Below the pieces are notes generated by a model. The model was not told where the DNA came from, did no database searches, and was given only the letters and a program-made list of their open reading frames with translations. From positions 128,001 through 192,000 of IMG/VR virus record IMGVR_UViG_3300010346_000241: a stretch of DNA of 64,000 nucleotides; one strand, given 5' to 3'. A program made the position numbers and the translations under genes. Origin of the DNA: a virus. Its lineage: Duplodnaviria > Caudoviricetes. Below, in pieces: positions 13,435 through 48,430 of the stretch (the first letter of the stretch is position 1; the number at the start of each line of letters is the position of its first letter).

Positions 13435-13515
13435 GTCTCCGTTATATATTATAGAGGTGTATAGAGTCGCTCAACTCTGTACAACACAATCTATTATATG
13501 AAAGGAGACAAAACT

Positions 13516-25189: not shown

Positions 25190-25276
25190 TGCGATGTCCT
25201 CCTTTAATTAAAATTTTGTGTATATACAAGAGGGGAACCTCTCGTACCCCTCTATTGTATACAATTGTTGATTGTT

Positions 25277-26651: not shown

Positions 26652-27368
26652 TTAGTTGATGTCCTCTCCCTCAAGTGATGTATACATGGTCTGCTGAACC
26701 TGTGGAGTACAAGGAGTATCGTTGTTAGCCTTGATCCATTCATCAATAGGCTCAAACGAACCAGATTCATACGACTTAAGGACAGCCCGCATATAGGCAA
26801 GCATATACTTGTCTATAGCCTTGGCATCTTTTTCGATACAGAGTCTGATGAACTGAAGGAGTGGTACCTTCTCTTCATACTTGACTCCTGTGCAGAGTAC
26901 GAATGACTCCTCATAATCTATAGGATCATAGAAGTCTTCCATATCTTCAGAGGTCAAATCGTGTATCATGCTCACTATCTTAGCAAAGCAAAGACCTCTG
27001 CCTTCTGCTGTTATCCATCTGGAGCGAGTCCAGTCTGGGGCCGTCATATCCTGTTCCTCTAATGTAAAGCATACGAGATACTCTTTGTTAGAATGTATCT
27101 GCTGTGGCTTCTGAGGAGCAGACTGTGGTGATGTACCTACTACTGGAGCCTGTGGGGTTCTCTTATTCTTAGTAGGTCTCTTAGTTGTTGTGGTTGCACC
27201 ATCTGCAACCTTGACTGTCTTGAGGTTCTTCTTAGCCTCATCTGCCAGTCTTGCTTCTTTTTCTCTGATAAGTCTGAGATCCTCTTCGGTAGGGTTAGCT
27301 TCCTGTGGTGTTACCTCACCAGAAACTGGATTCACTATACCGAAGGGATTGATAATCTCATCGCTCAT
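26652..27368 (-). CDS. hypothetical protein
   Basis: 238-aa ORF; early-like motif at 27416-27426. Confidence 0.7.
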   Translation of the reverse strand: MSDEIINPFGIVNPVSGEVTPQEANPTEEDLRLIREKEARLADEAKKNLKTVKVADGATTTTKRPTKNKRTPQAPVVGTSPQSAPQKPQQIHSNKEYLVCFTLEEQDMTAPDWTRSRWITAEGRGLCFAKIVSMIHDLTSEDMEDFYDPIDYEESFVLCTGVKYEEKVPLLQFIRLCIEKDAKAIDKYMLAYMRAVLKSYESGSFEPIDEWIKANNDTPCTPQVQQTMYTSLEGEDIN

Positions 27369-27451
27369 AGTTTCAATTCCTTTCTGAGTCTTAGTATAGG
27401 TCTTGACTCAAAGGTATGATATGTAGTCAAAAGATGTTTTAAGACAACTTA

Positions 27452-27477
27452 TCCGTAGTGGACATTTCCACTACGGA
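27452..27477 (-). terminator. terminator after putative ncRNA
   Basis: tccgtagtgga-catt-tccactacgga. Confidence 0.75.
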
Positions 27478-27481
27478 AAGG

Positions 27482-27614
27482 TGGTGGCGGTTCTGTCAGC
27501 TTAGAGCCCCTAGTCTTTGATGGGACCCGCTTAGTAACTAGGCTCATTACTGTTATACTAATTTAACAAGAAGTACTGCTGTTAGAGCCTATCAGTGCAT
27601 AGCTGCACCGCCAT
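27482..27614 (-). ncRNA. putative ~133-nt ncRNA with tRNA-like acceptor stem and 3' ACCA
   Basis: AACA-atatag-TA promoter (27614-27625); 5' GGCGGU pairs with 3' ACCGCC followed by ACCA; internal stems; terminator directly after. Confidence 0.65.
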
Positions 27615-27647
27615 ACTATATTGTTGTGAGTTTGTTAGATGATTACA

Positions 27648-28859
27648 TCACTCTTTTACATAAATACAAAACTTTCTAAAGCGAGTAGCTCCAACGTAGT
27701 TAAGTTTGTGATTTATGCTTTTGTTGAGTGACTCCTCTATGTATATGCCATTGTCATACTCAGAGCCTTGAGACATATGAGTAGTTATGGCATATCCAAA
27801 CTCAAATCTTTCATACTTTAGCATTGGGTCATTTCTTAAAGCTTCACGCTCTTTGGCATTAGCAGTGAAGTATGGATATGAACACTCCAGATTGTGAAAC
27901 ACATTACTTGCCAAATCATTAGAACCCATATCTGGAGCGAAGTCTAATATGAACTTCTTACTTTTGTTGTCATAGGAGTACTTAGGATCGTTTATACACA
28001 TTCCTAAGAGTCCATTGGTGAGACTGATACCATCTGGAGTTTCTATATTCCAGTTATTCTTGCGACATACTACTCTCTCACCATACATAGGTAGTTGTCC
28101 TCTGAAGCCATATGTAGCTCTCATAAGATCATTATAGTAGTCTCTTGTAACGTTTCTGCCACAGAGTATGATCTTTGACTTCAGAAGCATATCCATAGTG
28201 AGTTGGTTTCGATCAATAACGAGTGCATCTTTCCAAAGACCACAATGCGGTCGTAAACCGTTCTTTACCATCTGAGATATATAGACTATACCACTGTCTT
28301 GAGCCTGTCTCATGATCTCCGTGAGGAAGTGTATCTTTCGGGGATCATTCAGATATGCAGGCTTATCATGTACAGGTGGTAATTGATCTATATCTCCTGC
28401 TACTATGACAGGTATATGATGTTTCTCTATAGTACCTCTCATCTTAGGTGGTATAGTACTTCCTTCATCCACCAGTATGAGGTCTATATCTGGTAAAGAT
28501 TCTCTTTCAACGTACACTATCTTCATTTTAGGTTTGTTAGTCTTCGGGTCAATGACCTGATTACCTTTTTCATCTAAGACTGGTTCTATTACTGGCATAT
28601 ATAACCATGAATGTGCAGTCTTAGCATTCTCCATACCATGAACTCTCATATTGATTGCGGCCGCCCCAGTGTACGCAAGTGGGGCGACTCTGTGTCTCAT
28701 TATACCGAGATATTCGATTATAGTGTTTATCAGGTATGTTTTGCCTGAACCTGGTGGGCCAGAGATCTCAAATGGTTCTGATCTATCTCCTTTCCACCAT
28801 TCCATAGCTGCGTCGAACACTATACGTTGGTTAGTGTTCAGTGATGCATAATCATTCAT
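27648..28859 (-). CDS. dda: Dda/RecD-like SF1B helicase
   Basis: GPPGSGKT, AYTGAAA, LVDEGS, GDIDQLPPV, IMRQ, YAITTHMSQGSEY and YVGATR motifs. Confidence 0.9.
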   Translation of the reverse strand: MNDYASLNTNQRIVFDAAMEWWKGDRSEPFEISGPPGSGKTYLINTIIEYLGIMRHRVAPLAYTGAAAINMRVHGMENAKTAHSWLYMPVIEPVLDEKGNQVIDPKTNKPKMKIVYVERESLPDIDLILVDEGSTIPPKMRGTIEKHHIPVIVAGDIDQLPPVHDKPAYLNDPRKIHFLTEIMRQAQDSGIVYISQMVKNGLRPHCGLWKDALVIDRNQLTMDMLLKSKIILCGRNVTRDYYNDLMRATYGFRGQLPMYGERVVCRKNNWNIETPDGISLTNGLLGMCINDPKYSYDNKSKKFILDFAPDMGSNDLASNVFHNLECSYPYFTANAKEREALRNDPMLKYERFEFGYAITTHMSQGSEYDNGIYIEESLNKSINHKLNYVGATRFRKFCIYVKE

Positions 28860-48227: not shown

Positions 48228-48255
48228 CACTTTACTATAGACATAACACTATAGT

Positions 48256-48430
48256 GAGCGGGATGTTGACGGATTCGTTCCGCTGCGGATTGTTTAACAC
48301 TATGTATGTATTATTCTAGCTATCGGTTCAGTCATGTATTGCCTATTGAGCCCTCGGTTGTCGTTTGGCGTAGCGACATCCAATCTTCAAGTGGTGCTCG
48401 ATTTGGCTCTACAGAACCAATTCTCACCCC
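48256..48430 (+). ncRNA. putative ~175-nt structured ncRNA
   Basis: AACA-ctatag-TG promoter (48245-48256), several hairpins, terminator at 48436-48465; the next gene has its own promoter. Confidence 0.55.

Follow-up and report, generated by a model that had tools for sequence, protein, structure and literature searches.

A covariation-supported RNA with an AR9-type late promoter in a clade of uncultured jumbo phages

Virulent phages have yielded few small RNAs, and to hardly any of these has a function been assigned. The pRNA of the phi29 family is ~120–170 nt long, its 5' and 3' ends form a helix, and it includes a multi-helix junction and two hairpin loops. Jumbo myoviruses package DNA by terminase. 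In phage T4, RNAC and RNAD mature with tRNA-like ends. Both are small phage-encoded non-coding RNAs that are classed as late and have no known function (PMC9697503; PMC3014915), and they are transcribed from the tRNA gene region (PMC3014915). Published transcript maps of phiKZ-type giant phages contain essentially no small RNAs (PMC8244752). In phage AR9, the late promoter consensus is AACA-(6N)-TA/G, in which the last base is the transcription start site, and late promoters are found ahead of genes, internally and in antisense orientation (PMC5312081). The words 'noncoding' and 'small RNA' were not found in the main text of the latter paper.

The window analysed here is a stretch of 64,000 nucleotides, bases 128001–192000 of a 229,448-bp IMG/VR virus record that is rated complete. 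The DnaB-like and Dda-like helicases of this phage share ~30% identity with their counterparts in Listeria phage LPJP1, in Bacillus phages AR9/PBS1 and in Staphylococcus jumbo phages. Sequence comparison places the phage in a small clade of jumbo phages, uncultured and AR9/PBS1-like (Firmicute-type), with LPJP1, AR9/PBS1 and the Staphylococcus jumbo phages as its nearest cultured kin. The genes of the genome are preceded by strong ribosome-binding sites, AAAGGAGG, and 93% of the genome is coding as judged by a simple ORF caller. Of its gaps, 28 are 150 nt or longer. One of these, a gap of 279 nt (27369–27647) between replication-region genes, contains on the minus strand the RNA unit described below, with an RNA of roughly 140–170 bases.

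The upstream neighbour (27648–28859, minus strand) encodes a 403-aa Dda/PIF1/RecD-like helicase, which matches Pfam AAA_19, AAA_30 and PIF1 and PHROG 325 (Dda-like helicase). The downstream neighbour (26652–27368, minus strand) encodes a 238-aa protein without a family, and leads a four-gene block preceding a GyrB-like topoisomerase gene. No Pfam or PHROG match was found for the 238-aa protein. Its homologues form just nine clusters in 5.8 billion proteins, all from this clade, and the most divergent of them used as a second query gave no additional relatives. The AlphaFold model is poor (pLDDT 54), and Foldseek against viral structures returned uncharacterised proteins at TM <0.3. An N-terminal PFG motif is invariant, extended to NPFG in all homologues but one, and is followed by a disordered K/Q/P-rich linker and a C-terminal domain of ~130 aa with an acidic EGEDIN tail that recalls the C-terminal tips of ssDNA-binding proteins.

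The unit opens with an AR9-type late promoter, AACA-N6-TA (27614–27625, minus strand), with AACA at 27625–27622, six intervening nucleotides, T at 27615 and A at 27614 as the predicted +1. The promoter is kept in all 11 relatives. Across the genome, AACA-N6-T[A/G] sites are enriched threefold in non-coding DNA and are usually placed 15–30 nt ahead of a Shine-Dalgarno sequence (SD) and ATG, an enrichment and placement that agree with the AR9 late consensus (PMC5312081). The genome also holds at least 12 intergenic copies of a GTTATATATTATAGAG-type motif, e.g. at window positions 13445 (+) and 36019 (+), many of them directly after hairpins; this motif fits the AR9 early (virion RNA polymerase) consensus AAATATATATTAT-(6N)-G. 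The unit is like the AR9 late units in its promoter motif and +1 spacing, and the genome that carries it has an AR9-like early motif and AR9-like replication proteins.

The transcript is predicted to start with AU-GGCGGU on the minus strand. The body of the RNA (27477–27614) measures 138 nt when counted from +1 and 136 nt when the count begins at the first G of GGCGG. The absence of an ORF led by a ribosome-binding site after this promoter, which was part of the original prediction, was borne out, as the ~136 nt contain neither a conserved ORF nor an SD. The body ends in a variable C/A/U-rich 3' tail (27477–27485; ACCACCUUU in the window), which is of five types among the 11 sequences. A terminator-like hairpin of 11 bp follows (27452–27477; -18.7 kcal/mol) with a moderately U-rich tail after it (27441–27451), including six U in the next 12 nt. 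The stability and tail of this hairpin resemble those of hairpins ending convergent operons in the genome, and its stem is invariant across all relatives. It was not listed by a strict sigma-70-style terminator scan, and there is no clean U-tract. The order 3' of the RNA, a hairpin, then UUGUC, then AACAUC, is that of many terminator-plus-late-promoter junctions elsewhere in the genome.

A conserved spacer of about 84 nt (27369–27451) separates the hairpin from the 238-aa gene. It includes a sub-consensus AACA (27438–27435), a GAGUC...GACUC hairpin (27409–27386) and the SD (27385–27377), and is 87–93% identical among close relatives and 69% in L073. The AACA is not conserved and is replaced by AACG or AACT in some relatives. 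The GAGUC...GACUC hairpin, immediately ahead of the SD of the 238-aa gene, is conserved; before it comes a degenerate stretch that resembles an early promoter, ACATATCAT-N6-G, and whose L073 version is nearer to the early consensus.

Relatives were gathered with a helicase query, which gave three close IMG/VR relatives, and with the 238-aa protein, which gave nine clusters, 98% to 51% identical, with the same gene order in all. A scan of metagenomes with the hairpin pattern gave one further, near-identical version (L087). In total, 11 distinct versions of the RNA were obtained, always in the order Dda-like helicase, RNA, 238-aa ORF. Their sources are wastewater, sludge and cattle-gut assemblies; the stretch itself occurs in runs from metagenomes of activated sludge, wastewater, bovine gut and soil. 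A covariance model built on seven versions (R1) recovered the remaining four with E values of 1e-5 to 1e-19 (1e-5 to 1e-38 across the 11 relatives), and detected a single copy in the 229-kb genome.

Beyond this clade, R1 found nothing in ~40 distant Dda-helicase loci and the cultured phages LPJP1 and Machias, where the gap after the helicase gene is 69 nt and 13 nt, respectively. No match to the gap was found by blastn against 50,697 phage records, and an exact scan with the 5' 19-mer found the three close IMG/VR relatives only. Four hairpin-pattern matches in viral and metagenome contigs (L086, L089, L090 and L092) proved to be unrelated chance matches. Two matches in proteobacterial MAGs, obtained with a 20-mer against 596 Gb of genomes, were rejected by R1; about nine chance matches were estimated for the 19 fixed bases. 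Searches against Rfam, at the gathering threshold and, over 27300–27800, at E<=10, gave no family and chance matches only, such as CRISPR-DR56 (E 0.5). The RNA had originally been called undescribed, and this agrees with the absence of a family even at the relaxed threshold. It would represent a novel family within a familiar class, that of orphan phage small RNAs. As a clade-wide RNA supported by covariation, with a defined promoter type and fold and with natural deletion variants (P5 present or absent, five tail types), it is a tractable entry point to the role of late non-coding RNAs in AR9-like jumbo phages.

As deduced from the aligned relatives, the RNA folds into a four-way junction made up of the closing helix P1, the hairpin P2, a long P3 arm and a dispensable hairpin, P5. 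P1 (27486–27612) pairs GGCGG at 27612–27608 with CCGCC at 27490–27486, and this core is invariant in 11 of 11 sequences. The end sequences of the original prediction, GGCGGU (27612–27607) and ACCGCC (27491–27486), are present as described; at the sixth pair, L073 has A-U where the window has U-A. P2 (27595–27608), a hairpin of 4–5 bp with a tetraloop, abuts P1 directly and is supported by both covariation and RNAalifold. All four of its inner pairs are changed on both sides in L073, and a G-C pair is replaced by G-U in L075.

The P3/P4 arm (27539–27591) is long and irregular. Two pairs of its 7-bp base, P3a, have changes on both sides; A-U replaces G-C in at least two lineages, and L073 has A-U in place of U-A. 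Above P3a, the arm continues via a conserved CAG/CAG internal loop with an A.A mismatch up to a 5-bp upper stem, which pairs in 88% of cells, and ends in a variable apical loop that is deleted in L085. P5 (27506–27526) is a hairpin of 5 bp with a loop of 10–11 nt. Three of its pairs differ at both positions between the version of the window type and that of the L004/L075 type, and two separate branches, L003/L084 and L072, have no P5 at all.

Covariation in syntenic relatives had been proposed as a check on the RNA, and it was found. In the alignment fitted to the model, 96.3% of cells pair, 10 of 29 pairs have changes on both sides, and none of 500 column shuffles reached any of the measures; these figures are to be read with the facts that the alignment was fitted to the model, that L073 alone gives several of the double changes, and that P1 and the hairpin stem never vary. 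When the 3' partners were moved by 1–3 columns, only 1–2 pairs with changes on both sides remained. RNAalifold, as an independent prediction, recovered P1, P2, P3a and P5, with 9 of 21 pairs compensatory. The z-score of the single-sequence fold is only -1.77. The RNA body is 61–91% identical to the window version, and is less conserved than the promoter, the hairpin and, in most relatives, the flanking genes, which is the pattern expected for a structure-constrained RNA.

The internal stems of the original prediction fared unequally. AGGCUC/GAGCCU was confirmed. CAGCU/AGCUG has an uncompensated A.A mismatch in five relatives and competes with the covarying P2 hairpin, UAACAG/UUGUUA loses its 3' strand in L085, and CCUAGU/ACUAGG is not kept and competes with the supported P3 and P5 helices.

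Like phi29 pRNA, the molecule is a phage RNA closed by a helix between its 5' and 3' ends and organised around a multi-helix junction. Unlike pRNA, it has no Rfam match, the complementarity of its loops equals that of shuffles, and the unit does not lie near packaging genes. Kissing between the arm loop and the P5 loop, suspected from UCUU/AAGA, was discarded on duplex energies no better than those of shuffled sequences. The likeness to T4 RNAC and RNAD, compared by description, is that all are small, phage-encoded, non-coding and late; on the same footing, the RNA is set apart by its isolated position within a replication module, by an AR9-type promoter of its own and by a CCA end that is not conserved.

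The preferred reading, to which a probability of about 0.5 is assigned, is a stand-alone late small RNA with partial read-through into the downstream genes. By analogy with AR9, the non-virion RNA polymerase of the phage would start at A27614 from the late promoter. The transcript would fold into the junction, with a GC-rich P1, P2 stacked on it, the P3/P4 arm with its CAG/CAG loop and the optional P5. Most transcripts would stop after the hairpin at 27452–27477 to give an RNA of ~165–175 nt, and this RNA would act in trans late in infection as a protein-binding or scaffold RNA. In favour of a discrete unit, ordinary late 5' UTRs in the genome are 15–30 nt long. The operon-end character of the hairpin, the junction-like sequence that follows it, the lack of anti-terminator pairing beyond chance and a second ORF-free unit with a late promoter and terminator (48245–48465) also count for it. 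The fallback of the original prediction, a structural RNA, fits a structured non-coding unit with a late promoter and a terminator-like hairpin.

The stretch is present in four metatranscriptome runs (X2, X3, X17 and X18), which come from three studies. In X17, a contig that extends from the downstream genes to 27568, and so covers the 3' two-thirds of the RNA, has a depth of 121.6 as compared with 4.7 for the helicase contig, a contrast that points to a promoter between 27568 and 27710. In all four runs, RNA contigs run through the hairpin into the downstream gene; hence termination is at best partial. The 11-bp stem that had been taken for a terminator is a possible one: it resembles the operon-end hairpins of this phage in stability (-18.7 kcal/mol) and tail, is crossed by these contigs and was missed by the strict scan. 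The contigs carry no ends, strand, local depth or single transcripts, and their breaks coincide with strain variants. The first 45–60 nt of the predicted RNA are without cover in X2 (27553–27688) and in X17 (27569–27709), which is no evidence of absence.

In X2, the contig ends at 27552, where it is joined to an Illumina adapter, and the high-depth contig of X17 ends at 27568; both positions are in unpaired parts of the P3/P4 arm. These ends might mark an RNA end or a processing site, or might be assembly artefacts.

Because the contigs are without ends, strand and local depth, the estimate for the stand-alone RNA is held at about even, and a second reading retains a substantial, if smaller, share. 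In that reading, the late promoter serves late expression of replication-region genes (the 238-aa gene and the next three), and the RNA forms a structured 5' leader of this operon. The junction and hairpin would then stabilise the 5' end, direct processing or act as an operator for a protein, and the small RNA would be a by-product of partial termination or processing. Bridging of the hairpin in four runs is as this reading would have it, as is the continuous depth of 121.6 from the downstream genes to 27568 in X17 beside 4.7 for the helicase. The only consensus promoter in the 279-nt gap is that ahead of the RNA, the AACA past the hairpin not being conserved, and the lack of a conserved consensus promoter between the hairpin and the downstream start codon favours read-through from the promoter of the RNA. 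The same downstream gene accompanies the unit in every case, and the contig ends at 27552 (X2, adapter) and 27568 (X17) in the single-stranded P3 arm could mark processing.

Against a leader, one of 244 nt with a hairpin of the operon-end type at -18.7 kcal/mol would be exceptional in comparison with the typical 15–30 nt. The gap region in X18 has a depth of 6.4 versus 34.6 for the ORF, and the contigs that bridge the hairpin show neither single transcripts nor local depth, with breaks that coincide with strain variants. The layout of promoter, structured domain of ~130 nt, hairpin, ~85 nt, SD and gene is also that of Firmicute terminator-type riboswitches and 5'-leader small RNAs. Unlike Firmicute riboswitches, the unit has no Rfam aptamer, and its structured domain varies in the 3' half, part of which is dispensable. 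Nor was any alternative pairing with the terminator found beyond chance: a riboswitch-style anti-terminator was rejected, as hairpins between the tail and the terminator reach -2.5 to -5.6 kcal/mol and are equalled by 21%–70% of shuffled tails. A leader is regarded as less likely than a stand-alone RNA, and as a serious alternative to it.

With respect to function of the stand-alone RNA, conservation is concentrated in the helix geometry, the P1/P2 domain and one internal loop, and for this reason the RNA is probably a protein-binding or scaffold RNA. No extended complementarity to antisense targets was found in the phage genome (best E 0.46). A more specific proposal, which must be considered unlikely, is that the RNA is a dedicated subunit of a late phage machine, bound via P1/P2 and the CAG/CAG loop by one of the family-less proteins whose genes adjoin it in the replication module; in the sublineage with ACCA tails it might also be CCA-trimmed and engage tRNA-directed host enzymes. 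If true, this would be a jumbo-phage ribonucleoprotein without a described counterpart.

The original prediction had interpreted the unit as a tRNA mimic or decoy. In this reading, the processed GGCGGU/ACCGCC-A-CCA molecule would be a decoy or substrate for anticodon nucleases, CCA-adding enzyme or aminoacyl-tRNA synthetases. The RNA shares with tRNA, the tRNA-like domain of tmRNA and viral tRNA-like structures a helix between its 5' and 3' ends, the four-way junction topology and, in some members, A-CCA; P1 stacked on P2 could, in addition, give a minihelix of ~10 bp. The A-CCA end is indeed encoded in the window (27485–27482), where it follows the closing stem, as it does in five other distinct sequences, so that ACCA is found in only 6 of the 11. 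The tails after P1 are ACCACC in six sequences, the window included, AUAUCC in two, and AUCACC, AUAAAC and UACCUA in one each. In a phylogeny of the neighbouring protein, ACCA is missing from both of the deepest branches (L073 and L072) and also from L084 and L085, which branch inside the ACCA-bearing clade.

In L003, L084, L072 and L085, representing three lineages, the tail starts with AU, which can pair with the 5'-terminal AU of the predicted transcript. In these four, what appears from the pairing to be kept is a closing helix that reaches the 5' end and not a free NCCA. In the window, the 'discriminator' A can likewise pair with U27613. The lack of a T-arm, already remarked in the original prediction, was corroborated, since P5 has a loop of 10–11 nt, lies 10–15 nt from the 3' strand of P1, with which it is not contiguous, and is deleted in two lineages. 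It was also correct that the RNA is no canonical tRNA or tmRNA: ARAGORN listed no gene of either kind for the window, and neither the tRNA nor the tmRNA model of Rfam gave a match. The single tRNA gene of the whole genome, tRNA-Gln (ARAGORN), is ~49 kb from the unit. Furthermore, the closing stem is 5–6 bp and not the 7 bp of an acceptor stem, there is no T-loop, and formation of the 3' end would require removal of the 11-bp hairpin. In view of the distribution of ACCA, the AU pairing, the missing T-loop, the short stem and the remote, dispensable P5, tRNA mimicry was rejected as the conserved function, and only a slim chance is left to it. As the case illustrates, a conspicuous CCA end may be encoded by accident in a particular lineage.

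Similarly slight is the probability of a DNA-level element, such as an origin of replication or a site within the replication module that is bound by a protein, with an incidental RNA structure. Its position between the helicase and topoisomerase genes would suit such an element, and a sequence-specific site would be expected to stay unchanged, without covariation, as the hairpin stem does. Invariance is, however, not special to this site, because other regulatory hairpins in these phages are equally invariant. Several helices keep pairing via G-U, which is possible on the minus-strand RNA only and ties the fold to that RNA. The cumulative GC skew tracks gene orientation and shows no inflection at the unit.

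On present evidence from its reading frames, the RNA codes for no protein. The AUG-led 5' frame has 10 codons in the window, 7 in L003, 31 in L004 and 27 in L073, and the ATG of a 32-aa ORF at 27449–27547 is lost in L003. A leaderless micro-ORF with AUG at +1/+2 that gives a short peptide is scarcely credible, even though the predicted transcript opens with A-U-G in all relatives, as the frame varies from 7 to 31 codons and is shifted by indels, and the substitutions track base-pairing, not codons.

Other units with late promoters and hairpins were observed in the genome. A second ORF-free unit lies at window positions 48245–48465 (+), with an AACA-CTATAG-TG late promoter and ~175 nt of GC-richer sequence that ends in a GGAGGC/GCCUCC hairpin with a UCUUUUGUCUC tail; the SD of the following gene comes after it. 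Since R1 has no match there, this RNA is a different one. At about 25195–25270 of the window (-), a late promoter, AACA-ATTGTA-TA, is followed immediately by a 5' hairpin of the GAGGGG...CCCCUC type. This unit is invariant in all relatives, including the most divergent L073, and has a second copy at genome positions 120686–120731 (L100). Regulatory hairpins in the clade are more highly conserved than coding DNA. At genome positions 93555–93587 (-; L098:14355–14387), the +1 region of a late motif, AACA-ACAAAG-TG, forms the 5' strand of an 11-bp hairpin of the GGCGGGG type with a U-run after it, i.e. a terminator that overlaps a promoter.
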